Assembly: GCA_007378985.1 (NCBI GenBank)
Contig: VMHB01000001.1
Location: 192,252 to 256,251 of the forward strand
DNA: 64,000 bases
Origin: Parcubacteria group bacterium Greene0714_7
GTDB lineage: Bacteria > Patescibacteriota > Minisyncoccia > Phycocordibacterales > Phycocordibacteraceae
Direction: 5' to 3'
The notes beneath the pieces are model-generated. The model did not search any database. It worked only from the letters and a program-made list of their open reading frames with translations, and was not told where the DNA came from. The position numbers and the translations under genes were made by a program. Below are positions 6,236 to 54,009 of the stretch, in pieces (position 1 is the stretch's first letter; every line of letters starts with the position of its first letter).

Positions 6236-6321
6236 TTTCTAAATTTCTACTCCTCTCGAATTTCTAACTCTTAGAAAGAACTGTGTGAGAAAATTTTTCC
6301 GCAATACCTTTATAAACTCAT

Positions 6322-6357
6322 CCTCTAAACACTATCATATATGATAGTGTTTAGAGG
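6322..6357. promoter_or_regulatory. 36-bp perfect palindrome (operator-like) ending at the start codon of the TrpR-like gene
   Basis: CCTCTAAACACTATCATATATGATAGTGTTTAGAGG. A TATAAA box lies about 6 nt upstream. Confidence 0.6.
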
Positions 6358-6786
6358 ATGAAGGTTAAACCAAAAAAACTCACAAAAGATCAAATTATTG
6401 AAACTCTTGATGCTTTATATACAGCGGCAGGGTCACTACGAGGGCGTGCCACTATGAAATTATTTCTTCGCGATCTTCTGACCGAAGGAGAGAGGGTGAT
6501 GCTTGGTAGACGCATTCTGATTGCAAGACATCTTTTACGGGGTGAAAGCTATATCAGTATTCAACGTACTCTTGGCACAAGTCCTGTAACAATACGAAAT
6601 GTAGAGAAATGGTTAGACGATCAAATGCCGGGGTACGAGACAGCGATTAAGGGTATGCAAGCAACTTTTGCAAAGCGAAAACAAAAAAGCGCATCCATTG
6701 GCACATTTGCTTACTTAAAGAAGCGTTACCCGTTGCACTTTCTCCTCTTTCCGTGGCCAAAAGGGTATCGTACGGAAGATCAGTAA
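6358..6786 (+). CDS. TrpR-like DNA-binding protein (YerC/YecD family), paralog 1
   Basis: Conserved family segment LYTAAGSLRGRATMKLFLRDLLTEGERVMLGRR. It is paralogous to the ORF at 52390-52782. Confidence 0.8.
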   Translation: MKVKPKKLTKDQIIETLDALYTAAGSLRGRATMKLFLRDLLTEGERVMLGRRILIARHLLRGESYISIQRTLGTSPVTIRNVEKWLDDQMPGYETAIKGMQATFAKRKQKSASIGTFAYLKKRYPLHFLLFPWPKGYRTEDQ

Positions 6787-6793
6787 TATAAAC

Positions 6794-6813
6794 CACTATC
6801 ATATATGATAGTG
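6794..6813. promoter_or_regulatory. 20-bp perfect palindrome with the same core as the upstream operator, between the TrpR-like gene and rarA
   Basis: CACTATCATATATGATAGTG. Confidence 0.5.
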
Positions 6814-6882
6814 ATAATGAACACAGAGTAGAAGTTTGTTAAGTATGTGGAAGGGGTGTATGTGTCGCACATAAAAGATACA

Positions 6883-8022
6883 ATGATACACATGGAACCT
6901 TTGGCAGCAAAAATCAGACCAAAAAATCTTGATGAATTCATTGGGCAGGAGCATTTAGTAGGAGCTGGAAAACCTTTCCGTGTTGCCATAGAAGGTAAAC
7001 ACCGATTTTCTTTTGTGCTCTGGGGACCACCAGGGGTAGGAAAGACAACTTTGGCACGCATTTATGCAGACTCATTAGACGCTACTTTTTTTGAACTTTC
7101 GGCTGTTGCGGTTGGAAAAGAAGATATTAGGAAAGTAATAGCTACTGACACAGGCGGAAAACCAAAAGTTTTATTTCTTGACGAGATTCATAGATTTAAT
7201 AAAGCTCAGCAAGATTTTCTTCTTCCTTTTGTAGAGAAAGGCGACCTAACATTAATTGGAGCAACTACTGAAAATCCTAGTTTTGAAGTTATTCCTGCTC
7301 TTTTGTCTCGCGCTCGGGTATTTGTATTGCAGTCCATATCGGCAGAAAATATGGAAAAGATAATTGGGCGCACTGGCATGAAGATTGATTCAGAAGCGAT
7401 TGAGTGGGTCGTTGCCTATGCGAACGGTGATGCTCGAGCTGGAATCACTATAATTGAGAATGCTGAGCGTTTGTATGGAGAGGTAACTCAAAAGACACTA
7501 CAAGAATCACTCCAATCAGGGCGTCTTCGTTATGACAAAAAAGGTGAGGAGCACTACGATACTATTTCCGCATTTATAAAAAGTATGCGCGCAAGTCAGC
7601 CTGACGCCGCGATGTATTATCTTGCCCGTATGCTTGAAGGTGGAGAAGATCCCGTGTTCATTGCACGGCGTATGGTGATTTTTGCAAGTGAGGATATCGG
7701 GCTCGCACAGCCAACAGCACTAGTGGTAGCAAATGCGGTGTTTGATGCTGTTCGCTCAATAGGAATGCCTGAGGCTGGAATAAATCTTGCTCATGGTGTT
7801 GCCTATCTCTCGAACTCAAAAAAAGACCGATCAGCCTATGATGCACTCCGAGGAGCTCAGGCGGATGTTCAGACAACAGGTAATCTGCCTATCCCTATGA
7901 ATGTGCGTAATGCACCAACAAAGCTTATGAAGGAGTTGGGATACGGCAAGGATTATACAAAATATGACACAGAGAGTTATTTGCCTGAAAAGTTAAAAAA
8001 GAAGAAATATTTTGATTCTTGA
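6883..8022 (+). CDS. rarA: Recombination factor RarA/MgsA (AAA+ ATPase)
   Basis: Walker A (GPPGVGKTT), AAA+ core and a MgsA C-terminal domain. The start is taken at an internal Met of the ORF-track call. Confidence 0.85.
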
Positions 8023-8137
8023 CAGAATTTTTGAAAAGAGTATTTTGGATATATGGCAACTGTAGCTCAGAGCTTTGGCCTTCTTCTCGTCGTCAGCCTA
8101 CGCTAACGGAGGGAATTTGAGTTATATACAAAACAAA

Positions 8138-8163
8138 CCCCTCCCTAAAACGGAGGGGTTTTT
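8138..8163 (+). terminator. Rho-independent terminator downstream of rarA
   Basis: CCCCTCC-CTAAAAC-GGAGGGG followed by TTTTT. Confidence 0.7.
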
Positions 8164-8392
8164 AAAAATAAATATCATGAGTATAGATAATGGGGAGAGG
8201 AGTCATCGCAGATTTTTAGGTTCACGACAGCATGTTGAACGCAAAACTGTACATCCTGGATGTTTTTGTCAAATGAAACTTTCATCTGAAAATTCTACCC
8301 CTACGCATAAGCGTTATGTGTGTATTTTTGAAGGATGTAATGAGGGTAGGTGGGAGCGGAAAATATAATTTTGAGTTTTTTGTTATAGTGCC

Positions 8393-8500
8393 ATGATGAG
8401 CGGATTTAAACTTAAATCAGAATATAGTCCTGCAGGGGACCCCAGTACCAGACGCTCTTGCGTCGGTACGGGGCAGGTCATCCTTCATATAAAAACATGA
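8393..8500 (+). other. 35-codon upstream ORF that repeats the UvrB N-terminus and contains hairpin module A. Its TGA overlaps the uvrB ATG (ATGA).
   Basis: The uORF begins MMSGFKLKSEYSPAGD. The real UvrB begins MSGFNLKSDYKPAGD. Most codons differ only at synonymous positions. Confidence 0.45.
8438..8477 (+). repeat. GC-rich hairpin module A of the GACCCCAGT...ACGGGGCAGG family
   Basis: GACCCCAGTACCAGACGCTCTTGCGTCGGTACGGGGCAGG. The outer stem is CCCC(A)GTACC/GGTACGGGG and the inner stem is GACGC-TCTT-GCGTC. Confidence 0.6.
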
Positions 8501-10581
8501 GTGGTTTTAATCTCAAATCTGACTACAAACCAGCTGGCGATCAACCGCGAGCCATCGAGGCGTTGGTTAAGGGTGTGAAAGACGGGGAGTCACATCAGAC
8601 ACTTCTTGGGGTTACCGGCTCGGGTAAAACATTCACTGTTGCAAATGTTATACAGCAGATTCAAAAGCCAACCTTAGTCATTGCACACAATAAAACACTC
8701 GCAGCGCAACTTACACAAGAGTATCGAGAATTTTTCCCTGAAAATGCGGTGCACTATTTTGTTTCTTACTACGACTACTATCAGCCAGAGGCATACATGC
8801 CGATGACTGATACCTACATTGAAAAAGAGGCTCAAATTAACGCTGAAATTGATCGTTTGCGCCATGCTTCTACTCAGGCACTTTTAACTCGGAGTGATGT
8901 CATTATTGTGGCATCCGTTTCCGCTATCTACGGTCTTGGTTCTCCTGAGCAATATAAAAGAGTCCATAGGAATATTAGGGTGGGTGAAAAATTCGAGCGT
9001 GCAGAATTTGTACGTGCTCTCATTGGGCTCCAGTTTGAGCGTACAAACGCCGACTTAACTCCGGGGACATTTAGAGCGGTAGGTGCGAACGTTGAGCTTA
9101 TGCCAGTCAATGAAGTAGCGGTGTACCGTATTCATCCAGAGCAAGGAAGAATCGCACACATTAGTAAGCTCAATGCTGTTTCCCGGGCTCTTGTTGACGA
9201 GCCAAAAGAATTTTTTCTTTTTCCTGCAAAACATTATGTTACCGATGAAGCTGATAGAGGAAGGGCGGTAGCAGATATACAAAAAGAACTTGATGTTCGT
9301 TTGGTCCAGCTTGAAGCTGAAGGAAAAATGCTGGAGGCAGAACGCCTGCGGAGGCGTACTCGCTACGACCTCGCCCTCATTCGTGAAATTGGATACTGCA
9401 ACGGCATTGAAAATTATTCTCGCCACTTTGATGGACGCAAAGCTGGAGAGCCTCCGTATACGCTTCTTTCGTATTTTCCACACAAAGCAGATGGAACGCC
9501 AGATTTCCTTACGGTCATTGATGAGTCACACGTCACTATTCCTCAGCTCCGTGCCATGTATGCAGGAGACCAGTCACGAAAAAAGATGCTGGTTGATTAC
9601 GGGTTTCGTTTGCCATCTGCTGCGGACAATCGCCCTTTAACATTTGCGGAATTTGAGAAAAGAGTTGGAGAAAAAGTGTATACCAGTGCAACGCCAGGAG
9701 TGTATGAGTTTGAGCATTCGGGTACACCAATCGAGCAAGTCATTCGACCTACGGGACTCATTGACCCTGAAATAATAATTCGCCCCGTAACGGGCACCAG
9801 TTCATCGAGTAGTCAGGTAGTTGATTTCATACAGGAGACCGTCTCGGTAGTAAAAGGAGGAGGGCGAGTGCTTGTCACTACACTGACGAAGAAGATGGCG
9901 GAAGACTTGTCGGAATTCTTAAAAGAAAAAAATATAAAAGCTGAGTATATTCATAGTGATATTAAAACGATTGACCGCATTACTATTCTCACTGAATTTC
10001 GCAAAGGGACCTTTGATTGCTTGGTTGGTGTGAACCTACTTCGTGAAGGGCTCGACCTACCTGAAGTTGAGCTTGTGGGAATACTTGATGCCGATAAGGA
10101 GGGATTTCTTCGCTCCGATACATCACTCATTCAGACTATTGGTCGCGCAGCTCGAAATGTTAATGGTCGGGTTATTCTCTATGCCGATGGAATGACTGGC
10201 TCTATGGAGCGTGCCATTGGAGAGACTAATCGTAGGCGTGCGGTACAGCTTGCCTACAATACAAAGCACGGCATCACACCAAAAACCATTCATAAGAACA
10301 TTAAAGACATTACGGAAACACTGCAATCAGAGAGAGCTGCGGCTATTACTATGCTTTTGGCAGTTGATGAGGATCGTACGCATGATCCTAAAGCCTTGAA
10401 GGCTCTTATTAGCGAGAAACGCCAGCAAATGGAAGATGCGGTTGAGGTTCTTGATTTTGAGACTGCCGCACTGCTGCGAGATGAGGTCTATAAACTTGAA
10501 GAAAAACTACCCGTGCCGAAAAAGCCTAAGCGTAAACCCAAATGGCCCAAGAAAGGTATGGTAATTGATTTAGAAGATTAG
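8497..10581 (+). CDS. uvrB: Excinuclease ABC subunit B
   Basis: UvrB helicase motifs (GVTGSGKTF, DESH) and a C-terminal UvrB/UvrC interaction helix. The start is taken at the MSGFNLKSDY Met, not the TTG of the ORF track. Confidence 0.9.
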   Translation: MSGFNLKSDYKPAGDQPRAIEALVKGVKDGESHQTLLGVTGSGKTFTVANVIQQIQKPTLVIAHNKTLAAQLTQEYREFFPENAVHYFVSYYDYYQPEAYMPMTDTYIEKEAQINAEIDRLRHASTQALLTRSDVIIVASVSAIYGLGSPEQYKRVHRNIRVGEKFERAEFVRALIGLQFERTNADLTPGTFRAVGANVELMPVNEVAVYRIHPEQGRIAHISKLNAVSRALVDEPKEFFLFPAKHYVTDEADRGRAVADIQKELDVRLVQLEAEGKMLEAERLRRRTRYDLALIREIGYCNGIENYSRHFDGRKAGEPPYTLLSYFPHKADGTPDFLTVIDESHVTIPQLRAMYAGDQSRKKMLVDYGFRLPSAADNRPLTFAEFEKRVGEKVYTSATPGVYEFEHSGTPIEQVIRPTGLIDPEIIIRPVTGTSSSSSQVVDFIQETVSVVKGGGRVLVTTLTKKMAEDLSEFLKEKNIKAEYIHSDIKTIDRITILTEFRKGTFDCLVGVNLLREGLDLPEVELVGILDADKEGFLRSDTSLIQTIGRAARNVNGRVILYADGMTGSMERAIGETNRRRAVQLAYNTKHGITPKTIHKNIKDITETLQSERAAAITMLLAVDEDRTHDPKALKALISEKRQQMEDAVEVLDFETAALLRDEVYKLEEKLPVPKKPKRKPKWPKKGMVIDLED

Positions 10582-10652
10582 AGGTCGTCTAGCGTTAGTC
10601 ATCGAGAGACGGTAGTATGAGGGTACCGCCGGTTCGGCGGTTATTCCTATAT

Positions 10653-13316
10653 ATGGCAAAAGAAAAATCGAAAGATATCCACGACTCTGATGTAGGTCTC
10701 GACAAGATTGTTGTTCGAGGTGCCAAGACACACAATTTGAAGAATGTCTCTTTAGAGATACCTCGAAACAAACTCGTGGTATTTACGGGACTTTCTGGCT
10801 CAGGAAAATCATCGCTCGCATTTGATACTATTTTTGCTGAAGGGCAGAGACGATATGTGGAATCGCTTTCCGCATACGCTCGGCAGTTTTTAAATCAGAT
10901 GGCAAAGCCTGATGTGGAGGAAATTACTGGCCTTTCGCCTGCAATTGCCATCGACCAGAAGAGTCGTTCCAACAACCCTCGTTCTACCGTTGCGACTATC
11001 ACTGAAATTTATGACTACATGCGTATTTTGTATGCCCGTGTAGGTCAGCCGTACTGTACACAAGACGACACTCCAATTCAGAAACTCTCAAAAGAGGAGA
11101 TTATGAAAATAATTCTTCGCACCGTTGAGGTTGTGGATTTGAAGGCAACTGCAAAGCGGGCAATGGGAGTCGCATATAACGATTTGAAAATTCGTATTTT
11201 GGCCCCTGTAGTTGTGGGCAGAAAAGGCGAATACTATCAGCTTCTGTACGATTTACTTGGTAAAGGATATGAAAAGGTAATTGTTGATGGAAAAGAACAC
11301 TCGCTTCGAGAAAGAATTACAATTGAAAAAAACAAAGCGCACGACATTGATGTTGTGGTGGATGAAATTTTTGTTACTGAATTTGATCCCATCGGAAACG
11401 CAAAGCGTTCCAAGGAGCTTGGAAAATCAAAGGTGAACGATGCGAGAGAGCGGTTAAGTGAAGCGATTGAGCTTGCCCTCAAAGAGTCAAATGGTCTTAT
11501 AAAGATTGAAAATCCACTCAAAGAAGTACGCATTCTTTCGGCAAAGTTTATCTGCCCGCTAGACGGTTCATCGTTTCCTGAGGTCGAACCTAGACTATTC
11601 TCATTCAATAGTCCCTATGGTGCATGTCCTGAATGTCATGGGCTCGGAACAGTAGGGTTCTTTAATCTCGATGTTTGTACAGTATGTGAAGGCAAGCGCC
11701 TTCGACCTGAAGCGCTTCGTGTATTTTTAGGAGGCACTGAAAACAAACTCGGTATTTCAATCGTGGACCTTACGAGACTTTCTATCATTGATGCTAAAGT
11801 ATTTATTGAAAATCTAAAGCTCACCAAAAAACAGGAAGAAATTTCAAGTGCAATACTCAAAGAAATTCTTGCACGCTTGCAATTTATGATTGATGTAGGT
11901 ATCGGGTACTTGACGCTCGACCGCACCGCCAACACGCTTTCTGGTGGTGAGGCACAGCGCATTAGGCTCGCATCACAGCTCGGAAGCGGTCTTGTGGGAG
12001 CACTCTACGTTCTCGACGAGCCTACTATCGGACTTCACCAAAAAGATAATGACCGCCTCGTTAAAACACTGCTGAGGCTTCGTGATTTAGGTAATAGCAT
12101 CATCGTAGTGGAACATGACGAAGATACAATTTTCTCTTCGGACTTTATTGTGGACATTGGTCCAGGAGCTGGTGTGCATGGTGGTGAGATCGTCGTGGCT
12201 GGCTGGCTCGACAAACTTCTCACCGCTAAACGAAATGACTCAGGCTCTTTGACCCTCTCGTATCTTCGTGGAGAAAAAAAGATTCCAATTCCCGATGAGC
12301 GACGCACTGAGCAAAAAGGTGCTTTGAAAGTAAGACAGGGAAATGTCTTTAACATCAAAAATATGGATGTTGATGTTCCGCTAGGAAGACTGATTTGTGT
12401 CACTGGCGTATCTGGTTCAGGTAAATCATCTTTCATGTATGAGCTTTTATATAAAAATCTTCGAGGGAAGTTGGAGCGAAATTACAGAACAACCAAGCTG
12501 TATAACTGCACTAGCTTTTCAGGCTCTGAATATTTGAGTCGTGTAATTCTTATTGACCAATCATCGATTGGGCGTACACCCCGCTCTAACCCTGCAACAT
12601 ACACCGGTGCGTTTTCACATATTCGAGATATGTTTGCTGCAACGACTGAGGCTCGTGCACGAGGATGGAAAGGTGGACGGTTTTCTTTCAATGTAAAGGG
12701 AGGGCGATGTGAAGCGTGTCAAGGAAACGGCACCATAGCGGTTGAAATGCATTTCTTGCCAACGGTGTATGTGACCTGCGATGTGTGTGATGGTAAGCGG
12801 TTTATGAAGGAAACCTTGGAAGTTGAGTATCGAAAGAAAAATATACATCAAGTACTTTCTATGACGGTGGAAGAGGGACTTGAGTTCTTTAATGATATTC
12901 CTGCGATTCATGACCGCTTAAAAACCCTTTCAGAAGTAGGCTTGGGTTACTTGAAGCTAGGGCAATCAGCAACAACGCTTTCAGGTGGAGAAGCACAGAG
13001 AGTCAAAATCTCCTCGGAGCTGTATCGAAGACATACTGAGAAGACCATCTATCTTTTAGATGAGCCAACCATAGGTCTTCACTACGAAGATGTTCGAAAG
13101 CTTATTGATATTTTGCAAACCCTTGTGAATAAGGGCAATACCGTCATGGTTATTGAACACAATATGGAGCTTATAAAGAGCTCTGACTTTGTGATTGACA
13201 TAGGTCCTGACGGGGGAGTCGATGGCGGAAAAATCGTCGCTAAAGGCACTCCAGAGGAAGTTGCTCGCACCAAAGGTTCATATACCGGCGAATATTTAAA
13301 GCCTCTTTTGAAATAA
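10653..13316 (+). CDS. uvrA: Excinuclease ABC subunit A
   Basis: Two ABC ATPase modules (GLSGSGKSS, GVSGSGKSS) with zinc-finger CxxC inserts. The start is taken at MAKEKSKD. Confidence 0.9.
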   Translation: MAKEKSKDIHDSDVGLDKIVVRGAKTHNLKNVSLEIPRNKLVVFTGLSGSGKSSLAFDTIFAEGQRRYVESLSAYARQFLNQMAKPDVEEITGLSPAIAIDQKSRSNNPRSTVATITEIYDYMRILYARVGQPYCTQDDTPIQKLSKEEIMKIILRTVEVVDLKATAKRAMGVAYNDLKIRILAPVVVGRKGEYYQLLYDLLGKGYEKVIVDGKEHSLRERITIEKNKAHDIDVVVDEIFVTEFDPIGNAKRSKELGKSKVNDARERLSEAIELALKESNGLIKIENPLKEVRILSAKFICPLDGSSFPEVEPRLFSFNSPYGACPECHGLGTVGFFNLDVCTVCEGKRLRPEALRVFLGGTENKLGISIVDLTRLSIIDAKVFIENLKLTKKQEEISSAILKEILARLQFMIDVGIGYLTLDRTANTLSGGEAQRIRLASQLGSGLVGALYVLDEPTIGLHQKDNDRLVKTLLRLRDLGNSIIVVEHDEDTIFSSDFIVDIGPGAGVHGGEIVVAGWLDKLLTAKRNDSGSLTLSYLRGEKKIPIPDERRTEQKGALKVRQGNVFNIKNMDVDVPLGRLICVTGVSGSGKSSFMYELLYKNLRGKLERNYRTTKLYNCTSFSGSEYLSRVILIDQSSIGRTPRSNPATYTGAFSHIRDMFAATTEARARGWKGGRFSFNVKGGRCEACQGNGTIAVEMHFLPTVYVTCDVCDGKRFMKETLEVEYRKKNIHQVLSMTVEEGLEFFNDIPAIHDRLKTLSEVGLGYLKLGQSATTLSGGEAQRVKISSELYRRHTEKTIYLLDEPTIGLHYEDVRKLIDILQTLVNKGNTVMVIEHNMELIKSSDFVIDIGPDGGVDGGKIVAKGTPEEVARTKGSYTGEYLKPLLK

Positions 13317-13337
13317 TGATTTTGGTATAGTGATTCT

Positions 13338-14567
13338 GTGGAGAAGAAAGATCTAGATTTTTCAAAGATTCCTGATACGCCAGGCATTTATATTTTTCGA
13401 AAAGGAAAGAAGATTTTGTATATAGGTAAAGCAACCTCACTTAGAAGTAGGGTCCGTAGTTATTTTGTTGATGCTATAGCTGATATCCGCAGTCCCTTGA
13501 TTGCAAAGATTGTTGCGGACGCGGGAGTGGTTACTTGGGAAGAAACTGATTCAGTTTTAGAGGCATTCCTTTTGGAGTCCAAGCGAATAAAAGAATATCA
13601 GCCAGTAGGAAATACAGATGCTAAAGATAATAAGAGTTGGAATTATTTAGTGGTTACCAATGAAACCTTTCCTCGTTTTCTTGTTGTTCGTGAAAGAGAA
13701 CTTACTTCTAAATTTTCTCCATCTCTCATCAAGCATCTCTTCGGACCTTTTCCGAGTGGAGCAATGCTCAAGAGTGCTTTAAAAATAATTCGGAGAATTT
13801 TTCCTTTCTTTGATACCAAGTTTCCTTTAGACGGTCATTTAAGTCCTGCGAATGACAAGACGTTCCACTTTAATCAATCCATCGGGCTTTATCCGCGCGA
13901 GCTCAATGAAACTGAATATAAAAAAACAGTTCGGAATATCGTGCTTCTTTTTGAAGCAAAGAAATCAACTCTTTTGAAAACATTGGAGCGAGAAATGATG
14001 AGATCAGCAAAAGCTGAGGATTTTGAAGAAGCAGAAAAACTAAAACGACAAGTGTTTGCCTTAAAGCACATTCAAGACATTAGTTTAGTAAAAGAAGAGC
14101 TCCGTGCTCCTGATAGCTCCGAATTTCGTATCGAAGCCTATGACACGGCTCACATTCGTGGCAGTGCTCCGCGTGGGGTTATGTCGGTCATAGTGGATGG
14201 GGAAGCTGTTCCCGCTGAATATCGAATATTCACGATTCGAGATGCAAAGGCAGGTGATGATTTTGCAGCCCTTACAGAAATCATCACACGAAGAGCTAAT
14301 CATCCAGAATGGCCTTTCCCAAAATTAGTAGTTATTGATGGAGGAAAAACGCATCTGAATATGGCAAAGAAGGTGCTTGTGAAAGTGGGTATTGATGCGG
14401 ATGTTGTTTCTGTAGTGAAAGACGAACGACATCGTCCACGAGAAATTTTAGGCGGTACTGCGCTCGCTGTAACACATGAATCCAGCATTCTTCTTGCAAA
14501 TAGCGAGGCTCATCGTTTCGCTATTTCTCGCCATAGAAGGGCATTACGGAAGTCTCATATACAGTAA
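13338..14567 (+). CDS. uvrC: Excinuclease ABC subunit C, short form (409 aa, GIY-YIG plus C-terminal endonuclease domain, no HhH tail)
   Basis: GIY-YIG motif (GIYIFRKGKKILYIGKATSLRSR) followed by an RNase H-like C-terminal nuclease region. Confidence 0.8.
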   Translation: MEKKDLDFSKIPDTPGIYIFRKGKKILYIGKATSLRSRVRSYFVDAIADIRSPLIAKIVADAGVVTWEETDSVLEAFLLESKRIKEYQPVGNTDAKDNKSWNYLVVTNETFPRFLVVRERELTSKFSPSLIKHLFGPFPSGAMLKSALKIIRRIFPFFDTKFPLDGHLSPANDKTFHFNQSIGLYPRELNETEYKKTVRNIVLLFEAKKSTLLKTLEREMMRSAKAEDFEEAEKLKRQVFALKHIQDISLVKEELRAPDSSEFRIEAYDTAHIRGSAPRGVMSVIVDGEAVPAEYRIFTIRDAKAGDDFAALTEIITRRANHPEWPFPKLVVIDGGKTHLNMAKKVLVKVGIDADVVSVVKDERHRPREILGGTALAVTHESSILLANSEAHRFAISRHRRALRKSHIQ

Positions 14568-20621: not shown

Positions 20622-21767
20622 ATGTCACGGGTAAAAATTACGGAGTATAGAGCTAAGAAACTTATACTTGGGGACGCATATGCGGGTCGTTCCTTGTCGG
20701 GTATTTCTGATGTTGGGTTTACGAAACCCAACATGGTGGTGAAGGTTGATCAAGGGATTAAGAAGCGTTTTAAGCAGGGGCTTGTTGCGGTCAATGTTTC
20801 TTCAAAGGAGGCAGGGCAGAAAGTAAGGGAATGGGAAAAGCGAGGTTTTTCTCATTTTCTTGTTGAGCCGTATGTATCGCATGAGGAGTCTGAAGAGCAG
20901 TACCTTTTTTTAGAGCGGGTACGCACGGGGATACGAGTTCTACATGCTTCTTCGGGTGGTATTGATATCGAGGCACACCCAGAACTAGTGAAAACATATC
21001 TCATAAACCCGGCACTATCATATATGGTAGTGCCGGGCATCCCAGAAAAATTCTTGAAACATCTTGTGGAGGTGTTTGAAAAAAACTTTTTCTCTTTTCT
21101 TGAAATTAATCCACTTGTTGTTCGGGGAGATGAGGTATATATCCTCGATGCAGCGGTGCTCGTCGACAGCGCGGGAATATTTTTCGTCAAAAATGGATGG
21201 AACGAAGAAGACGTTGTTGAGGGAAAGGTACGACATATTGCTGAAGAAAAAGTACAGGCACTTCAAAAAACTACCCCTGCCTCCCTGAAACTCACCATTT
21301 TGCACCCTGATGGAGGTTTGTTTTTTCTGCTTTCAGGTGGTGGTGGAAGTATTGTTATTGCAGATGAGGCAGAACTTAATGGTGTGGGTCGCTCCATTGG
21401 TAATTATGGAGAATATAGCGGTGGTCCAACTCGAGAAGAAACACATCTCTACGCACGAGAGGTGATTCAGCTATTACTTAATTCACCTGCAAAGAAGAAG
21501 GCGCTCGTGATTGCTGGAGGTATTGCAAATTTTACTGATGTTAAGTCAACATTTAAGGGTATTGTTGATGCCTTGTCAGAGTGCGCGAGCACTCTTCGAG
21601 GAAAAGGTGTAAAAGTATTTGTGCGTCGTGGCGGACCGAATGAAATTGAAGGGCTTCTTTTTATGGAAGAGTATTTAAAAAAAGAAAAATTATTTGGTTC
21701 AGTGTATGGTTCTGGTGCAGTAATTACGAGTGCAGTTGATGATGCCATTGCATTTATAAAAAAATGA
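20622..21767 (+). CDS. aclB: ATP-citrate lyase beta subunit (ATP-grasp, SucC-like)
   Basis: Blocks match the N-terminal half of ATP-citrate lyase: VVKVDQGIKKRFKQGLVAVN, FLEINPLVV, ASLKLTILHPDGG, GNYGEYSGGP, ALVIAGGIANFTDVKSTFKGIV and VFVRRGGPN. Confidence 0.8.
   Translation: MSRVKITEYRAKKLILGDAYAGRSLSGISDVGFTKPNMVVKVDQGIKKRFKQGLVAVNVSSKEAGQKVREWEKRGFSHFLVEPYVSHEESEEQYLFLERVRTGIRVLHASSGGIDIEAHPELVKTYLINPALSYMVVPGIPEKFLKHLVEVFEKNFFSFLEINPLVVRGDEVYILDAAVLVDSAGIFFVKNGWNEEDVVEGKVRHIAEEKVQALQKTTPASLKLTILHPDGGLFFLLSGGGGSIVIADEAELNGVGRSIGNYGEYSGGPTREETHLYAREVIQLLLNSPAKKKALVIAGGIANFTDVKSTFKGIVDALSECASTLRGKGVKVFVRRGGPNEIEGLLFMEEYLKKEKLFGSVYGSGAVITSAVDDAIAFIKK
21011..21034. promoter_or_regulatory. 24-bp near-perfect palindrome inside aclB that matches the TrpR-like paralog-1 operator core (19/20)
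   Basis: GGCACTATCATATATGGTAGTGCC versus operator CACTATCATATATGATAGTG. Confidence 0.4.
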
Positions 21768-21813
21768 ACCCCGTTAGAAATACCACCTGCACAGATTTCT
21801 AAAATATTTATAT

Positions 21814-23652
21814 ATGAAAAAGCGCATTGATAAAATTTCTAACGGGGTGAACATACTTGAATTAACACGGAGTGGAAGAGCAAGAGTTCTCGTCATAGGG
21901 AATCATTCAGGCATTATTCAGTCAATGCTCGATTTTGATTTTCTTTCAGGCAAGGAAATTCCTTCTGTATTGGGGATAGTTGCAGGGAATCGTAAGGCAG
22001 AAAAATATTTTTTTGGGACTAAAGAAATTTTGTTGCCATGCTATAAGAATATTCAAATTGCTTCGGAGGCCTTAGGTTCAAAGGTCGACTGGATGCTTAA
22101 TCTTCAGTCGGGACGGCGTACATTTGAATCAACGGTTTCCTTTTTTGATTTTTTCCCAAAATCGCTTGGGGCACACATATTTGCAGAAAATGTTCCAGAA
22201 AGTCACGCAACTGAGCTCATTTCTCGTTTTGGTAAGAAGTATTTTATCGTAGGGCCTTCAGGAGTTGGATTGTTGATACCAGGCGCTTTGAAGCTTGGCG
22301 CCATTGGTGGTGTTGATGCGGTTCAAATTAAATCTGGAGCACTGACAAACGCTGGAAATATTGCGGTTGGTTCAACTTCTGGAGGAATGACTAATGAGCT
22401 GATTCATGCAGTTGCGCGTGCTGGGAAAAGACTCTCGTTTGCAATAGCTATTGGCGGAGACAGGTTTCCTGTAGTTTCTTTGACGCAGATATTTGCGCTT
22501 GCTGAAGCAGATTCTCAAACAGAAGGATTTGTATATTTTGGAGAGCTTGGCGGTGTAGATGAATATGAAATTATTGAGCTCATTAAGGCAAAAAAGTTCA
22601 CCAAACCTCTTGTTGCGTATATTGCGGGAATTATAGATGAAGCATTTGATGAACATGTACAATTTGGGCATGCAAAGGCATTGGTGCAGACAATGGATGA
22701 AAGTGCTCGTGCAAAGCGTGAGGCACTTCGCGAGGCTGGTGTTATTGCTCCTGATACATTTCCTCAGTTTCTTGATGCGCTTCAAAAACTTCCCGGAGGC
22801 GCGTATACTGCTGAGGAAATGGATATAGAGCCGCTTCAAGGACGACAGAAAAGTATTCTTTCGACGAGAAAGGTTTCAGACATAGATGAAGGTCGTATTT
22901 TTGTAAAAGGAAAAAAACTTTCGAAAGGCAAAGAAAATGCATTTGTGGACGCTACGTTAGTTGCACTTCTTGGAAAGCCTGTACAGTCTCCAATAACACG
23001 AGCCTTTACCGAAGCTGTGTTTGAAATGCTTATAGACCACGGAGGAAATGTTTCAGGGGCAGTAAATACCATGATTACCGCTCGTGCTGGTAAAGATCTT
23101 GTTTCATCCCTTGCCTCAGGCCTTCTCACTGTTGGTCCCCGTTTTGGTGGAGCAATAAACGAAGCAGCTCGTTTGTGGATTTCGGGTGTTGTATCGCAAA
23201 AAACAGGTTTGGAATTTGTAGCTGAAAAAGCAAAGGCAGGTGAGTTGATTTTAGGCATTGGGCACAAGAAATACCGCGTTGGGCTCCCAGATCCTCGAGT
23301 GAAAGCTCTTGCTGAATTTGCAACGCTTCTTAAAGTACATCCACATTATGATTTCGCACGGAGCGTAGAGAAAGCAACAACTTCAAAAAACGGGAAATTG
23401 ATTTTAAATATCGACGGCGCTATTGCAGCGTTACTCTTAGACATCTTGAGTGAATGCGAAGGGATGAGTCAGCGCGAACTTCAAGAGCTTGCTGATGCTG
23501 AATTCTTTAATGCATTTTTTGTTATTCCTCGCTCTGTAGGTTTCATTGCACATTTCATGGAACAAAAGAAAAATGATGAAGGTTTGTTTCGTCTTCCTGA
23601 TGAACTACTGTTTGTGAGAGCAGAGACTCCAAAGAAAACTAAGAAGAAATAA
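21814..23652 (+). CDS. aclA: ATP-citrate lyase alpha subunit (CoA-binding SucD-like domain plus citrate-synthase-like domain)
   Basis: MLDFDFLSGKEIPSV, ARAGKDLVSSLASGLLTVGPRFGG, GIGHKKYRVGLPDPR (a citrate synthase-type motif) and PRSVGFIAHFMEQ all match the ACLY C-terminal half. Confidence 0.8.
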   Translation: MKKRIDKISNGVNILELTRSGRARVLVIGNHSGIIQSMLDFDFLSGKEIPSVLGIVAGNRKAEKYFFGTKEILLPCYKNIQIASEALGSKVDWMLNLQSGRRTFESTVSFFDFFPKSLGAHIFAENVPESHATELISRFGKKYFIVGPSGVGLLIPGALKLGAIGGVDAVQIKSGALTNAGNIAVGSTSGGMTNELIHAVARAGKRLSFAIAIGGDRFPVVSLTQIFALAEADSQTEGFVYFGELGGVDEYEIIELIKAKKFTKPLVAYIAGIIDEAFDEHVQFGHAKALVQTMDESARAKREALREAGVIAPDTFPQFLDALQKLPGGAYTAEEMDIEPLQGRQKSILSTRKVSDIDEGRIFVKGKKLSKGKENAFVDATLVALLGKPVQSPITRAFTEAVFEMLIDHGGNVSGAVNTMITARAGKDLVSSLASGLLTVGPRFGGAINEAARLWISGVVSQKTGLEFVAEKAKAGELILGIGHKKYRVGLPDPRVKALAEFATLLKVHPHYDFARSVEKATTSKNGKLILNIDGAIAALLLDILSECEGMSQRELQELADAEFFNAFFVIPRSVGFIAHFMEQKKNDEGLFRLPDELLFVRAETPKKTKKK

Positions 23653-24323: not shown

Positions 24324-24365
24324 CAGTATAGTATAAGTTAACGACCGTTAAATTATACTATACTG
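24324..24365. promoter_or_regulatory. 42-bp AT-rich near-palindrome P1 (20-bp arms, AC centre)
   Basis: CAGTATAGTATAAGTTAACG-AC-CGTTAAATTATACTATACTG. Confidence 0.5.
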
Positions 24366-24409: not shown

Positions 24410-24721
24410 TTATTTGGCCTTTTTTAAAAATTTGACGCTCAAAGGTGAAATGTTTGGATAGAGGCGTGCTAATTCTGTCGGGTCAGATTTATACGGTGTG
24501 AATGCTTCAATAGTTGCATCTGATGCGGTGCCTGGTCCAAGCCATACAGTATCCCCACCTTCATCAGTATGTCTTTCAATGTGAAATACTCGGTAGACAA
24601 TGCCGGGGAAAAAATGAGGAGCAAGAGAAATAAAGTCTTGCGCTGAGAGGGCTCGTAGTTTCACCCGATCTCCTTTTTGAAGAAAGAGATGTTCAGGTTT
24701 TCGGTGGTCTTTTTCTGACAT
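24410..24721 (-). CDS. Hypothetical protein (103 aa) bracketed by palindromes P1 and P2
   Basis: The ORF is intact but has no recognisable domain. Confidence 0.45.
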   Translation of the reverse strand: MSEKDHRKPEHLFLQKGDRVKLRALSAQDFISLAPHFFPGIVYRVFHIERHTDEGGDTVWLGPGTASDATIEAFTPYKSDPTELARLYPNISPLSVKFLKKAK

Positions 24722-24797: not shown

Positions 24798-24837
24798 TGT
24801 ATAGTATAATTTAACGACCGTTAAATTATACTATACA
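24798..24837. promoter_or_regulatory. 40-bp near-palindrome P2, same family as P1, in the divergent spacer between the 103-aa gene and the NUDIX gene
   Basis: TGTATAGTATAATTTAACG-AC-CGTTAAATTATACTATACA. Confidence 0.5.
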
Positions 24838-26580: not shown

Positions 26581-26707
26581 GCTATAGATTAGTGTATAGC
26601 GTTTAGTGGTTAGGGGAATTCAATTCAAGAAAACTAAACCCTAAACGCTAGACCCTAAACCCTATTTAAGCTAGCCCCGAGAGGTTCGAAGTGTTAAAGT
26701 ATTTGCG

Positions 26708-40011: not shown

Positions 40012-40185
40012 GAATTGCTGATTGAAGTCGAGTGTTTCATACACTAACTAGCCAATTTTTTATTTAGGAGATATTAGAAAAAAGAAAAATGGAAACAGTG
40101 GGTTGATATAGTTCAACAAATAGGAAGTAGGGCAAAATAAATTAGGACCCTCTAATAATTAATGCCCCGTGTCTCCGAAAAACAC

Positions 40186-40227
40186 CTGTATAGTATAAAA
40201 TCACGGTCGTGATTTTATACTATACAG
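40186..40227. promoter_or_regulatory. 42-bp near-palindrome P3 (same family as P1/P2, with compensatory arm changes) upstream of ychF
   Basis: CTGTATAGTATAAAATCACG-GT-CGTGATTTTATACTATACAG. Confidence 0.5.
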
Positions 40228-40287
40228 GGTTTTAAATTTTTTTTTTAGGCTAGCCACTAAAGCCTAAACCCTATACACTGCTCCTTT

Positions 40288-48960: not shown

Positions 48961-49000
48961 CCATTTCTTATATATCGATTAATCGATATATAAGAAATGG
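48961..49000. promoter_or_regulatory. 40-bp perfect palindrome immediately upstream of a consensus promoter
   Basis: CCATTTCTTATATATCGATTAATCGATATATAAGAAATGG. Confidence 0.6.
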
Positions 49001-50612: not shown

Positions 50613-51446
50613 ATGTCGTTGCCTATTATTATAAAAGGAGATGGAAACAAAGAGTCTTTTGCAATAGAAAAACTTACCGAATCTCTGCGTCGCTCAGGAA
50701 CAGATGAGCATTTAGCAGAAGCTGTAGCAAAGCGCGTTGGTGCGACCGTTAAAGACGGTATGACTACTACCGCTATTTACCAAGAAGCTTTCAAAGTACT
50801 CCGCAAGGAGGAGCGTGTTTCAGCAGCCCGATATTCAATGCGCCGAGCTATTCTTGATTTAGGGCCTACTGGTTTTCCATTTGAGAAATTTGTTGCCGCG
50901 CTCATGCATGCAAAAGGATACGAAACTTCGTATGGCATCACGGTGCAGGGAAGATGTATTGATCATGAAGTTGATGTAGTAATGCGAAAAGATGGAAAGG
51001 CAATTGGCGCTGAATTAAAATTTCATAATACCCCCGGATTTAAAACAGATCTAAAGACCGCACTCTATGTGCGTGCAAGATATTGGGATATTCAATGGGG
51101 GGCTGAAGACAGGGAAGAGAAGGCTGGTATTGACGAAGGATGGCTTGTGACGAATACAAAGTTTACTTCGAAAGCTATCCAATATTCAAATTGTTCGGGC
51201 ATTAAACTTCTTGGGTGGAGTTATCCTGATGGCGCCAGTCTTTCTGACTTTATTCGAGAGACGGGTGTCTATCCCATAACGATCTTAACGACACTCTCAC
51301 AAGCAGAAAAAAATCGACTTCTTCAGTCTGGCGTAACAATGTGTCACATGGTAATGAGTGATCCCGATTCACTAAAGCGAATTGGTATTCCAGCAAAAAA
51401 ACAAAGTGAGGTAGTTGCAGAGAGTAAGGCAATTTGTCAGCTGTAA
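50613..51446 (+). CDS. ATP-cone domain protein fused to an Mrr-like PD-(D/E)xK restriction endonuclease domain
   Basis: N-terminal ATP-cone (IIKGDGNKESFAIEKLTESLRRSG). C-terminal Mrr_cat-like D...EVD...ELK core. Confidence 0.65.
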   Translation: MSLPIIIKGDGNKESFAIEKLTESLRRSGTDEHLAEAVAKRVGATVKDGMTTTAIYQEAFKVLRKEERVSAARYSMRRAILDLGPTGFPFEKFVAALMHAKGYETSYGITVQGRCIDHEVDVVMRKDGKAIGAELKFHNTPGFKTDLKTALYVRARYWDIQWGAEDREEKAGIDEGWLVTNTKFTSKAIQYSNCSGIKLLGWSYPDGASLSDFIRETGVYPITILTTLSQAEKNRLLQSGVTMCHMVMSDPDSLKRIGIPAKKQSEVVAESKAICQL

Positions 51447-51470
51447 CATTGTATTTTTTCACAAAGCATT

Positions 51471-52307
51471 ATGTCGCAATACTATAAGCCACACCGTAAA
51501 GTTGATTGGAATTATGGAGGGCCTAGGTGGCGTCTGTCGCGTTCAAAAATAGATCTCTTCATTCAGTGTCCTCGTTGTTTTTATATTGATAATAAGCTTG
51601 GTACTGCACGACCTCCTGGATTTCCATTCAATTTGAACTCAGCCGTCGACAAACTTTTAAAAAAAGAGTTTGATATTCACCGAAATTCAAAAAGTACTCA
51701 TCCATTAATGAGTAAGTATGGTGTTGATGCTATCCCCTTTGAGCATAAAAAGATGGATACATGGAGAGAAAATTTTAAAGGGATTGATTGCTTCCATGCA
51801 CCTACTGGATTCACTGTTTCGGGCGCCATAGATGATGTATGGGTTAGTCCAAAAGGTGAGTTACACATTGTTGATTACAAGGCTACGAGTAAAGATGAGG
51901 AAGTAACCCTTGATGCCGAGTGGCAGGATGGATACAAGCGTCAAATGGAAGTGTACCAATGGCTATTTCGTCAAAACGAGTTCACTGTCTCTGACATGGG
52001 GTATTTTGTGTATGCGAACGGAAGAACAGATACCGAGGCATTCGATGGCAAGCTTGAGTTCGATGTAAAGGTAATCCCGTACGTCGGCAAAGCGGATTGG
52101 ATTGACGGGACTCTTTTGGAAATTAAAGCGTGCCTAGATGCCGATGTAATTCCAAAAACAGGCGAAGCGTGCGATTACTGTACGTACCGCAAAGCAGTTG
52201 GGGAAGTTCTTCAGCCATTTATAAAAAAAGATGTAGGCAGTTCAAAAATAAGTAAGGCAAAATCAAAAGATAGTGAAGATTCACATGAGCAATCCCTTTT
52301 TAGATAA
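51471..52307 (+). CDS. Cas4-like/RecB-family PD-(D/E)xK nuclease with N- and C-terminal Cys pairs (probable Fe-S cluster)
   Basis: Motifs IVDYKAT and QMEVYQWLF (QhxxY), plus the Cys pairs CPRC (N-terminal) and CDYC (C-terminal). Confidence 0.65.
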   Translation: MSQYYKPHRKVDWNYGGPRWRLSRSKIDLFIQCPRCFYIDNKLGTARPPGFPFNLNSAVDKLLKKEFDIHRNSKSTHPLMSKYGVDAIPFEHKKMDTWRENFKGIDCFHAPTGFTVSGAIDDVWVSPKGELHIVDYKATSKDEEVTLDAEWQDGYKRQMEVYQWLFRQNEFTVSDMGYFVYANGRTDTEAFDGKLEFDVKVIPYVGKADWIDGTLLEIKACLDADVIPKTGEACDYCTYRKAVGEVLQPFIKKDVGSSKISKAKSKDSEDSHEQSLFR

Positions 52308-52351
52308 TTTTTTAAATTAACGACTAGTGTCTACAAATTTCTTTTTTGCAT

Positions 52352-52395
52352 GACTGAGAAACTTATTTCCATATATGGAAATAAGTTTCTCAGTC
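52352..52395. promoter_or_regulatory. 44-bp perfect palindrome over the 3' end of the second TrpR-like gene. It is followed on the plus strand by a T-run, so it probably also terminates the Cas4-like gene.
   Basis: GACTGAGAAACTTATTTCCATATATGGAAATAAGTTTCTCAGTC followed by TAATTTTTTCTTTTTT. Confidence 0.6.
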
Positions 52396-52782
52396 TAATT
52401 TTTTCTTTTTTGGTTCTGGAAATAGAAGAAAATGCAACGGGTATTTGCGTTTAAGTGCTCTGAAAGAAAATGGACCATAGTTCGCCTCAAAAAGGTTTTC
52501 CCTCTTTTTGAATTCTTTATCCATGCTTTTGATTGCTTCCTCGAATCCAGGAAATTGATCTTGAAGCCATCGTTCTACTCGGTATATGGTTGCCAATCCA
52601 ACGCGTAGTTTTGTGGCGATGTCATTAGCTCGTTCGCCTTGGATAAGGAGTCGAGCTATCCAAATTCGCCTTCCAAGCATGATTCTCTCGCTTTCAGTGA
52701 GAAGATCGCGCAGGAAGAGTTTCATTGTGCTTCGTCCGCGAACTGATCCCGCTGCAGTGTAGAGAATATCTAGTGTTTTCAT
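52390..52782 (-). CDS. TrpR-like DNA-binding protein (YerC/YecD family), paralog 2
   Basis: MKTLDILYTAAGSVRGRSTMKLFLRDLLTESERIMLGRR matches paralog 1. A strong SD (AAGGAGGAG) precedes the internal ATG chosen as start. Confidence 0.8.
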   Translation of the reverse strand: MKTLDILYTAAGSVRGRSTMKLFLRDLLTESERIMLGRRIWIARLLIQGERANDIATKLRVGLATIYRVERWLQDQFPGFEEAIKSMDKEFKKRENLFEANYGPFSFRALKRKYPLHFLLFPEPKKKKLD

Positions 52783-52875
52783 TTTCTCCTCCTTTCCAAG
52801 GTCGCTAGATTTTCTTTTCATACTGAACATATTTTCATATATGGAAATATCTGCACGAAAACATGGTGTATAACT

Positions 52876-52917
52876 TCACTCACATGTATTTCCATATATG
52901 GAAATACATGTGAGTGA
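52876..52917. promoter_or_regulatory. 42-bp perfect palindrome in the divergent spacer between TrpR-like paralog 2 and the MGMT-like gene. An imperfect copy lies at 52849-52868.
   Basis: TCACTCACATGTATTTCCATATATGGAAATACATGTGAGTGA. The core TTTCCATATATGGAAA is shared with the 52352 palindrome. Confidence 0.6.
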
Positions 52918-52969
52918 ACAGATTTGGGCGTGCAAGATGAGCTAGGCAAAAGGGTGGTATATTTGATAA

Positions 52970-53257
52970 ATGGTGCAGGTATTTTCAAAGAAGTTCAAAG
53001 ATGATTTCAGGGCTCGAGTGGTGGCGGTGGTAAAGAAAATACCGCGCGGAAAAACTATGAGTTATGGGCAGGTTGCTCTGGCAGCTGGGCGTCCAAATGC
53101 AGGAAGGGCAGTTGGAACTATTATGGCGGGAAATCAGGATAAGGGCGTGCCGTGTCACCGAGTGATTCGCTCTGATGGGAAAATTGGGGGCTACAACGGT
53201 CTTCGAGATGGTTTGAGTAAGGAAGAACTTTTAAGAAAGGAAGGGGCGATTAAATAG
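52970..53257 (+). CDS. MGMT-family (O6-alkylguanine alkyltransferase) DNA-binding domain protein, short (95 aa)
   Basis: PCHRV active-site motif and a helix-turn-wing region (MSYGQVALAAGRPNAGRAVG). Confidence 0.7.
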   Translation: MVQVFSKKFKDDFRARVVAVVKKIPRGKTMSYGQVALAAGRPNAGRAVGTIMAGNQDKGVPCHRVIRSDGKIGGYNGLRDGLSKEELLRKEGAIK

Positions 53258-53325
53258 ATTCAAGGTACAGGATTCAAGAAGCAAGAATTAAAAAACCTTT
53301 ACTCCTGAATCGCGAATCTTACTTC

Positions 53326-54009
53326 TTGAATGCAAGGCATATGGAAATACGCATTGAGCAATCTTGGAAAGAAAAATTGAAAGAGGAATTTGAAAAGCCA
53401 TATTTCAAAACACTGATTTCATTTGTTAAAGATGCCTATACAAAAGGTTCGGTATACCCACATCCAAAAAATATCTTCCGTGCGTTTGATTTATGTCCAT
53501 TTGGTGCGGTTAAGGTAGTTATCTTGGGTCAGGATCCGTATCACGGAGAAGGCCAGGCAAATGGCCTTTCGTTTGCAGTAGAGGAAGGAGTACGACCACC
53601 GCCATCGCTTCAAAATATTTTCAAAGAAATTCAATCAGATATTGGTAAGCCTCTTGTTCATACGAACGGTGACTTATCAAGGTGGGCAACGCAGGGAGTA
53701 CTACTTTTAAACGCAACGCTCACTGTGCAAGCGAATACGGCAGGCTCGCATCAGGGTAAAGGTTGGGAAGAGTTTACTGATGCGGCAATTAAATTACTTT
53801 CAGAAGAACGTGAACACCTAGTGTTTATTCTTTGGGGTAATTATGCCAAAGCAAAAGGTGCGCATATTGATCGCACTAAACATCTTGTTATTGAATCGCC
53901 ACACCCATCACCTTTCTCGGCCTTTAGTGGATTTTTTGGAAGTAAACCTTTCAGTAAAACAAACACGTATCTTATGGTTAAGGGACACGCTCCTATTGAT
54001 TGGCTCTGA
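53326..54009 (+). CDS. ung: Uracil-DNA glycosylase (family 1)
   Basis: Catalytic motifs GQDPYH and HPSPLS-like (SPHPSPFSA). Confidence 0.9.
   Translation: MNARHMEIRIEQSWKEKLKEEFEKPYFKTLISFVKDAYTKGSVYPHPKNIFRAFDLCPFGAVKVVILGQDPYHGEGQANGLSFAVEEGVRPPPSLQNIFKEIQSDIGKPLVHTNGDLSRWATQGVLLLNATLTVQANTAGSHQGKGWEEFTDAAIKLLSEEREHLVFILWGNYAKAKGAHIDRTKHLVIESPHPSPFSAFSGFFGSKPFSKTNTYLMVKGHAPIDWL

Follow-up and report, generated by a model that had tools for sequence, protein, structure and literature searches.

In Escherichia coli, a TrpR dimer binds a palindrome that overlaps the -10 element of its own promoter, which results in autorepression. Closer in sequence and fold to the proteins considered here is YerC of Bacillus subtilis, which is HisR, a histidine-responsive repressor with 20-base-pair (bp) palindromic operators; its motif has been validated in vitro with the R. 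gnavus orthologue, HisR is autoregulated in about half of the genomes studied, and TrpR, the motif of which is quoted in the same study, also uses 20-bp palindromes (PMC9413887). The statement in an earlier note on the DNA analyzed here that YerC/YecD proteins lack an established function is thus outdated. We analyzed a stretch of 64,000 nucleotides (nt) of Parcubacteria group bacterium Greene0714_7 (contig VMHB01000001.1, positions 192,252 to 256,251), hereafter the window, in which a gene for a TrpR/HisR(YerC)-type protein, termed paralogue 1, lies between two copies of one palindrome that the encoded protein very probably recognizes. Parcubacteria and other bacteria of the candidate phyla radiation (CPR) are uncultivated, and the source of the window is a groundwater bacterium. 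The family is widespread in uncultivated Parcubacteria, where gene regulation is largely unstudied, and no study of regulation by this TrpR-like family in Parcubacteria or CPR bacteria was found in the literature.

Paralogue 1 (6358-6786, plus strand) encodes 142 amino acids (aa) with a TrpR/HisR(YerC)-type helix-turn-helix (HTH) and a conserved C-terminal motif, KYPLHFLLFPWPK, and ends with the stop codon TAA at 6784-6786. Its product is 100% identical to a known protein of Parcubacteria group bacterium Greene0714_7. Its candidate upstream operator is a perfect 44-bp palindrome at 6318-6361, TCATCCTCTAAACACTATCATA·TATGATAGTGTTTAGAGGATGA (here and below the raised dot marks the center of symmetry), the 20-bp core of which, CACTATCATATATGATAGTG, occupies 6330-6349. 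The palindrome is centered 18 nt 5' of the ATG at 6358 and takes in ATGA, the first four bases of the open reading frame (ORF); of the 36-bp palindrome at 6322-6357 ending at the start codon that had been described earlier, the location therefore stands and the extent does not. The candidate downstream operator at 6794-6813 is an exact copy of the 20-bp core that begins 7 nt past the stop codon and lies 78 nt ahead of the rarA start codon (ATG 6892), in agreement with the 7 nt and the 70-90 nt given before. Also confirmed was a one-mismatch third copy of the core inside aclB (21013-21032), which is part of a 30-bp palindrome with one mismatch (21008-21037) within codons for ALSYMVVPG. A search of the 64-kb window for the core with up to 3 mismatches returned exactly these three sites, compared to 0.01 expected from shuffles, which rules out a chance origin. 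The label "paralog 1" is justified by a 58%-identical paralogue on the minus strand at 52390-52821, around which there are palindromes of another sequence; none of these is expected by chance, which is likewise ruled out as their origin.

The comparative set consisted of 80 loci from Parcubacterial genomes and the two window genes (82 loci), and a site was defined as N7-ATA·TAT-N7 with no more than one of the 10 pairs mismatched, located up to 120 nt upstream of the start codon or within about 120 nt past the stop codon. Such palindromes were found upstream of the gene in 64 loci, downstream in 62 and on both sides in 57, and cognate palindromes flank the gene in 69 of the 82 loci. Their density is 225-fold higher in the flanking zones (130 sites in 22.8 kb) than in the other 434 kb (11 sites). 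Within a locus, upstream and downstream half-sites match at 6.5 of the 7 variable positions, compared to 3.4 of 7 between loci; at least 20 different half-sites are in use, and several assemblies contain two or three paralogues. The position matrix gives a motif of about 26 bp of the form aAA-core-TTt, and each paralogue would read its private palindrome of about this length, aAA-N6-[C/G]ATA·TAT[G/C]-N6-TTt, the 26-bp sites being CACTATCATA·TATGATAGTG for paralogue 1 and TATTTCCATA·TATGGAAATA for paralogue 2. Across three orthologous loci of the type tgt / gene / rarA, the flanks have diverged around conserved cores, and comparison with the orthologues L001 and L205 shows this also for the upstream operator of paralogue 1. 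The neighbors are diverse (281 neighbor proteins fall into 198 clusters), with stable synteny in these three loci and in a secA / gene / ychF-gatB group of about 12 loci. In the latter group the half-site varies by genome (TACTACCATA, AACCTCCATA, CACTATCATA, TACTTTCATA), and both copies have changed together with the protein, which points to selection on both.

The half-sites also covary with the protein. Mutual information between protein columns and half-site positions is highest within the HTH. Half-site position 7 is G in 37 of the 38 cases with Asp at residue 77, and C in 30 of the 31 with another residue there. Arg at residue 66 is found with G at position 2 (21/21) and Asp or Glu with A (31/35); Arg at residue 76 is found with G at position 3 (9/10) and Tyr, Pro, His or Phe mostly with C; position 5 is mostly T if residue 80 is Trp or Gly, and A if it is Glu, Arg, Gln or His. 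In the recognition helix predicted by an AlphaFold2 (AF2) model, residues 76, 77 and 80 occupy positions 1, 2 and 5, which are the canonical base-contacting positions in HTH proteins. On a neighbor-joining tree of 69 taxa from which columns 60-90 had been left out, each of the residue and base states had at least 7-14 changes, with concordance in 62-67 of the 69 taxa. Given that these changes were repeated and independent, the residue-base association does not reflect one inherited split. Because the half-site bases covary with HTH residues over many independent origins, we consider it very probable, on comparative sequence grounds, that the encoded protein directly recognizes the flanking palindromes; the residues involved would be 66 and 69 in the first HTH helix together with 76, 77 and 80. 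The proposal of the earlier note that the protein has a palindrome of its own is thus supported by both the covariation and the flanking sites, and it survived a comparison in which the palindrome could have been absent at orthologues and was found at 69 of the 82 loci. Every family gene carries two copies of its own putative operator and with them a built-in key to the residue-base code. Once tested, the code (Asp77-G, Arg66-G, Arg76-G, Trp/Gly80-T) could serve for target prediction in Parcubacterial genomes in general, with the aclB site as one such predicted target, and the family naturally provides a set of orthogonal repressor/operator pairs.

The gene-proximal outer hexamer of the upstream sites (+6 to +11) is most often TAGTAT, with A at hexamer position 5 in 74% of the upstream versus 49% of the downstream sites (p = 0.001), and its distance from the start codon peaks at 6-7 nt. 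In paralogue 1 the right arm reads TG-A-TAGTGT and is followed after 7 nt by ATG, and the spacing in paralogue 2 is equal. Hexamers resembling a -35 element lie 16-18 nt away at 15 of 45 upstream versus 5 of 46 downstream sites. The upstream arm thus probably has the extended -10 geometry of a leaderless mRNA promoter, a layout that would explain why the apparent Shine-Dalgarno sequence AGAGG abuts the ATG of paralogue 1. The autorepression geometry formerly ascribed to the upstream copy is supported by this overlap between the arm and the probable leaderless -10 element, and with the site placed over the -10 element and the start point, autorepression appears likely. The protein would shut off its own gene and, where present, the divergent neighbor: the upstream neighbor is divergent in 50 of 73 loci, and the same operator could therefore also control it. 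Similar layouts are found at other genes of the window, i.e., at rarA, where a conserved TACAAT is followed after 7 nt by ATG (6879-6894), and at uvrC, where TGGTATAGT is followed after a few nt by GTG (13320-13345; 17712-17740 in L205) and is conserved in relatives. They suggest that leaderless transcription is widespread in this lineage.

The downstream site follows the stop codon of the regulator gene, with its center at +7 to +94, irrespective of the next gene, which is convergent in 57 of 76 loci (75%). The regulator is antisense to both of its neighbors in 35 of 62 loci, compared to 18% of the other genes in the same loci (p = 6e-9). In the window the neighbor is rarA/mgsA (6879-8022, plus strand), the promoter-like TACAAT-7 nt-ATG element of which lies about 75 bp beyond the downstream core and is conserved in all three tgt / gene / rarA loci. 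Since the downstream site tracks the regulator stop codon whatever follows, and rarA keeps an element of its own, comparison of these loci assigns the site to the unit of the regulator gene and not to rarA. The proposed control of rarA through the downstream copy is hence not borne out, and nothing in the analysis shows rarA to be a target of paralogue 1. No T-run was found at the downstream site of paralogue 1, which thus is not an intrinsic terminator.

The downstream copy would instead be a second cognate operator of the regulator gene itself. It may cooperate with the upstream copy by means of a loop of about 460 bp, perhaps through the C-terminal module of the protein; it may instead, or also, block polymerases that arrive from the usually convergent neighbor or by read-through. 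Of the possible functions we consider these two the most likely, and we would give cooperative looping between the two putative operators and a roadblock or insulator role of the downstream site equal and somewhat less than even chances. Cognate operators that cooperate by looping are known for lambda CI with OR and OL, for lac O1/O2 and for gal OE/OI. The likeness to these systems, such as OR and OL around cI-rexAB, lies in a repressor gene or promoter that is bracketed by operators. Their repressors, however, have demonstrated oligomerization domains, whereas tetramerization is conjectured here and helical phasing was not seen.

The site inside aclB is kept in five orthologues, the window included, by paired changes in both arms (TAT/GTA, TAC/ATA, TCC/GGA, ACC/GGT). 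It reads CACTATCATA·TATGGTAGTG in the window and CACTACCATA·TATGATAGTG in L209, which comes from the genome with an 88%-identical orthologue of paralogue 1; it is perfect in L212 (CACTCCCATA·TATGGGAGTG) and L211 (CACACCCATA·TATGGGTGTG) and has two mismatches in L201 (CACATCCATA·TATGAGTGTG). All five share the outer arms GGCAC/GTGCC and very nearly also the flanking CC/GG pairs, and the arm changes cost amino-acid substitutions (Ser/Val versus Pro/Gly). Because these compensatory changes preserve the palindrome at an amino-acid cost, there is good evidence from the aligned genes for a selected intragenic site, and the earlier suggestion that the aclB copy is a candidate target is strengthened. 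The site fits the specificity of paralogue 1 in both genomes with a known regulator, and it would belong to a small set of extra targets. The assignment of the odd aclB site of P0122 to the paralogue-b genome was wrong, the L209 aclB site being of the paralogue-1 type. An inserted palindromic element, in the manner of the Rickettsia palindromic elements (RPE), was considered and rejected: the aclB region aligns to human ACLY without insertion. Although such organisms are regarded as lacking a TCA cycle, the window carries an ATP-citrate lyase pair at 20622-23652, consisting of an aclB-like gene (381 aa) and an aclA-like gene (612 aa) with a GNAT acetyltransferase before them; a homologue search returned 1830 proteins at E <= 1e-60, many of them labeled Patescibacteria.

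The model in which a dimeric HTH repressor of this family reads private palindromes, represses its own gene, has a second operator past its stop codon and acts on a few extra targets is, in our judgment, likely from sequence comparison, and the following observations weigh against it. No palindrome of the defined type is found in 13 of the 82 loci. The promoter call is based on consensus geometry, and matches in a generic sigma-70 scan of the region were not above those in shuffles. The distances between upstream and downstream sites (445-586 bp) show no clear helical phasing, and both looping and tetramerization via the C-terminal module are conjecture. Arms that go at least 4 nt past the 10-nt half-site were seen at 15 of 66 upstream sites and at 21 of 63 downstream sites, and perfect arms reach up to 31 nt, which is beyond the 20-26 bp contacted by a dimer and for which binding alone is inadequate. 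Further points come from an exact-core scan of public metagenomes (at least 120 stretches), in which all counts of dispersed copies are among the matches listed. Among the 156 sites found with up to 2 mismatches, only 37 lie beside a family gene. By rough ORF calls, the dispersed copies lie in ORFs (28), at convergent (21), co-directional (24) or divergent (4) junctions, and the excess of convergent over divergent junctions (p = 0.0009), together with the T-runs of these copies, is atypical of promoter operators. T-runs (at least 6 T in 8) are found on at least one side in 51% of 83 distinct orphan contexts and on both sides in 30%, compared to 8% at random positions; at the sites that flank family genes they are found in 14% upstream and 19% downstream.

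The scan yielded at least 81 distinct contexts away from family genes, and in more than half of the dispersed copies the arms are perfect and unique over 14-27 nt. With the ascertained match discounted, the extra sites number about 1 per 21 kb, which equals the density in the window. To judge from their makeup, the dispersed copies resemble bidirectional terminators of the A-tract/hairpin/T-tract type with the operator core as their hairpin, and ordinary terminators of the same build occur in the window at 8135-8161 and 2821-2848. One might therefore suppose that the palindromes act as RNA, i.e., as intrinsic and often bidirectional terminators or as stabilizing stem-loops that insulate a lone antisense gene, and that recognition by a protein is secondary or does not occur, a reading favored by the T-runs, the long unique arms and the convergent junctions of the orphan copies, by hairpin energies that reach -30 kcal/mol and by the downstream 44-mer of paralogue 2, which scores as a terminator for the convergent gene. 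We consider this improbable. A hairpin needs no specific sequence, whereas the apical 20 bp are locus-specific, are the same at both gene ends and covary with HTH residues in chemically sensible pairs (Arg-G, Asp-C opposite G); moreover, upstream sites lie at promoter positions and not at 3' ends, T-runs are scarce at the sites that flank family genes, and those of paralogue 1 have none in three orthologues. If the protein does recognize the palindromes, further cognate sites may be built into A-tract/T-tract terminator-like hairpins. Related to this is an alternative that we hold to be unlikely but worth stating, according to which the proteins form a diversifying roadblock or insulator family, each paralogue clamping its private palindromes at gene ends, those of its own gene as well as those at the apices of terminator hairpins. 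The downstream operator, the lone antisense position, the labile perfect arms and the terminator-like copies do point beyond simple autorepression. If the roadblock reading is true, termination and read-through would be set in both directions by a module that can be gained at new places, which would amount to a protein-programmed terminator system in minimal-genome bacteria. Among known roadblocks, Tus-TerB/RTP and mTERF-type proteins resemble the Parcubacterial family in that a DNA binder has a site adjoining its own gene. Tus-TerB and RTP have further polar or bidirectional blocking sites elsewhere, which cluster in the replication terminus. These systems differ from the Parcubacterial family in their unrelated folds, in having one protein per genome and in the clustering of their sites at the terminus.

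A gene between two cognate palindromes also recalls the REP/REPIN-RAYT systems, in which RAYTs are HUH tyrosine transposases and REPs number tens to hundreds. In these systems a single-copy gene is flanked by cognate palindromic repeats, dispersed extragenic copies often lie at 3' ends, and the repeats differ by gene clade (PMC3116915, PMC3337134). That palindrome-gene-palindrome is such a selfish or mobile module, seeding copies of its palindrome, would agree with the bracketing by cognate repeats and the dispersed extragenic copies, although these number only about 1 per 21 kb, with the several paralogues per genome that have private repeats, with the gene running opposite to both neighbors in 35 of 62 loci versus 18% of other genes, with the great diversity of neighbors and with a close relative that gained a module between a 75-aa ORF and uvrC. 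Unlike a RAYT, however, the protein is a bare HTH protein in which searches of Pfam and NCBIfam found Trp_repressor and weak HTH_23 and HTH_28 matches only and no nuclease, recombinase or HUH/Y1 transposase domain. There are few copies, neither identical paralogues nor target duplications were observed, gene order has persisted over deep divergence (about 12 secA loci and three tgt / rarA loci) and the aclB copy is not an insertion; the flanks of the dispersed copies are unique, with only about 20-26 bp shared and no shared element longer than about 26 bp. A mobile module is therefore highly improbable. It is scarcely credible that another factor binds the palindromes, or that the ATATAT center with TAGTAT-like arms forms a bidirectional promoter, and that the adjacent TrpR-like gene is incidental. 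The invariant ATA·TAT center and the TAGTAT-like outer hexamers do resemble -10 elements on both strands, but from a generic promoter element one would expect neither differences among the paralogues of a single genome, nor agreement between the two flanks of each gene, nor covariation with that gene's recognition helix, and the downstream and aclB copies are not at promoter positions.

Paralogue 1 belongs to the Pfam family PF01371 (Trp_repressor), as does E. coli TrpR, with a score of 41.2 bits (cut-off 27) over residues 16-99, and this domain is present in 120 of the 120 homologues listed. It scores below the cut-offs of the NCBIfam models TIGR02531 yecD_yerC (27.9 bits, cut-off 42.2) and TIGR01321 TrpR (19.2 bits, cut-off 67.25). 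In a profile search with 21 family members, the best structures were of the YerC/HisR type (3FRW, 3KOR and 3G1C, with E from 7e-11, for 3FRW, to 7e-8), and E. coli TrpR was a weak match (E about 2e-3). The AF2 model, with a mean pLDDT of only 69, is all-helical (residues 10-28, 30-40, 43-60, 65-72, 76-89 and 93-108), and its top Foldseek matches are 3FRW, 3KOR and 1TRO, with weak E-values. In the model, residues 65-72 and 76-89 form the HTH as helices D and E, as in the solved TrpR and YerC structures. A basic N-terminus, MKVxxKxLTK, and a C-terminal module ending LKKKYPLHFLLFPWPK are conserved in the family and absent from TrpR and HisR; in the extra segment of residues 100-135, K121, Y124, P125, H127, F128, L129, F131, P132 and P134 are invariant. 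The first homologue search returned 903 relatives, whose organism-bearing source names are all Patescibacteria/Parcubacteria, and 170 genomic stretches were confirmed to contain the family, often with several members per genome.

The similarity to HisR extends to a palindromic operator of 20 bp, each half of which has its specificity in the outer 6-7 bp (PMC9413887), and the HisR consensus cacTTTAnnnnnnTAAAgtg resembles some of the half-sites found here, such as CACTTTGATA. HisR proteins, however, have fewer than 100 aa, are encoded once per genome and act as histidine-responsive regulators of his and transporter genes (PMC9413887). The Parcubacterial proteins have 131-170 aa, and paralogue 1 with its 142 aa falls outside the YerC length range of fewer than 100 aa with no further modules. 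They also have the extra conserved C-terminal module, and they occur as several paralogues with private specificities and without linkage to his genes, none of which was found among the 281 neighbor proteins or near any site in the window. Their sites differ from those of HisR in the invariant ATA·TAT center and in their presence on both sides of the gene; E. coli TrpR, too, has no downstream operator. The likeness to TrpR and HisR is thus at the level of DNA recognition, membership in YerC fails on cut-off, length and regulon, and the protein is, by its sequence, a Parcubacteria-specific branch of the TrpR/HisR(YerC) family that is distinct from YerC.

Paralogue 2 (52390-52821, minus strand; start codon ATG 52821 set by family alignment) is accompanied by three copies of a palindrome (core TATTTCCATATATGGAAATA) that differs from that of paralogue 1 and has only the center CATATATG in common with it. 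The candidate proximal upstream operator, ATATTTCCATA·TATGAAAATAT (52829-52850, one mismatch), is centered 18 nt 5' of the start codon, a geometry equal to that of paralogue 1. The candidate distal upstream operator is a perfect 44-bp palindrome with the core TATTTCCATATATGGAAATA at 52875-52918, about 50 nt upstream of the divergent gene mgmt. The candidate downstream operator, another perfect 44-bp palindrome (52352-52395), overlaps the stop codon TGA (52390-52392) and is followed on the plus strand by TAATTTTTTC, an arrangement that is terminator-like for the convergent PD-(D/E)XK gene. The mgmt gene (52970-53257, plus strand) encodes an O6-alkylguanine-DNA alkyltransferase-like protein of 95 aa with a PCHRV motif that was read directly, and its position makes it the best local candidate for co-regulation with paralogue 2. 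Both paralogues are situated amid DNA-repair genes of the window, i.e., rarA-uvrB-uvrA-uvrC at 6847-14567, and genes for an Mrr-like nuclease and a PD-(D/E)XK nuclease together with mgmt and udg at 50613-54009. A DNA-repair regulon was considered and rejected, the neighbors in the 80 other loci being mostly housekeeping genes (secA, ychF, gatB, aminoacyl-tRNA synthetases and GAPDH).

The extension of the arms is labile. Paralogue 1 has arms of 22 nt upstream and 10 nt downstream, and its 89%-identical orthologue in L001 has arms of 9 nt upstream and 20 nt downstream; the constrained arm, i.e., the start-codon region in one case and the end of the coding sequence in the other, has its reverse complement in the extended intergenic arm. 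As a pattern of sequence change, labile perfect arms fit hairpin-templated mutation or selection for a hairpin. Whole modules appear to be labile as well. In the relative represented by L205 and L209 (same contig), tgt / gene / rarA-uvrB-uvrA is kept, with 88% identity for paralogue 1, and an extra TrpR-like paralogue of 148 aa with its own palindromes (TTCACCCATA type) lies at 16859-17734 of L205, antisense between a 75-aa ORF and uvrC. The extra paralogue is absent from the window, L211 and L212; the 75-aa ORF is present in L211 and L212 and missing from the window, in which the gap between uvrA and uvrC is 22 bp. This presence and absence among relatives indicates that modules are gained and lost; the borders of the gain (paralogue b) are not definable because the flanks are too divergent to align.

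Variation in the palindrome itself is found at a few loci. In L056, L066 and L077 the half-sites GTATGATA and TATCATAC are 8 bp further apart (TTATGTAA) on both gene sides, and L068 and L053 have other centers, TATATA-C-ATATATA and CTTA·TAAG; these variant spacings and centers may mark sub-branches with a different dimer geometry. Among the metagenome matches (L132, L142, L144, L183 and L090, L113, L115), the exact 20-mer is found within reverse-transcriptase-like ORFs (group II intron type, read by eye), in which it is translated as LSYMIV, and within MutY/EndoIII-like genes, where its position is conserved across three genomes. Through the reverse-transcriptase-like ORFs, a mobile element may have raised the number of dispersed copies counted.

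Palindromes of other sequence also occur in the window. One of about 40 bp, TGTATAGTATAAtTTAACG-nn-CGTTAAaTTATACTATACA, is present in three copies (24324-24365, 24798-24837 and 40180-40233), the first two of which, 473 bp apart, bracket an orphan gene of 103 aa (24410-24721, minus strand) that has no Pfam match and only 2 homologues, and the third of which lies upstream of ychF. The orphan was considered as a second bracketed gene but is no clear case, as only the downstream palindrome is kept in the two homologous contigs. A perfect 40-bp palindrome, CCATTTCTTATATATCGATT·AATCGATATATAAGAAATGG, is located at 48961-49000, just past a yceG/mltG-like gene, and an imperfect inverted repeat at 26589-26658 consists of the 25-nt arms TTAGTGTATAGCGTTTAGTGGTTAG and CTAAACCCTAAACGCTAGACCCTAA, which are 84% complementary and 20 nt apart.

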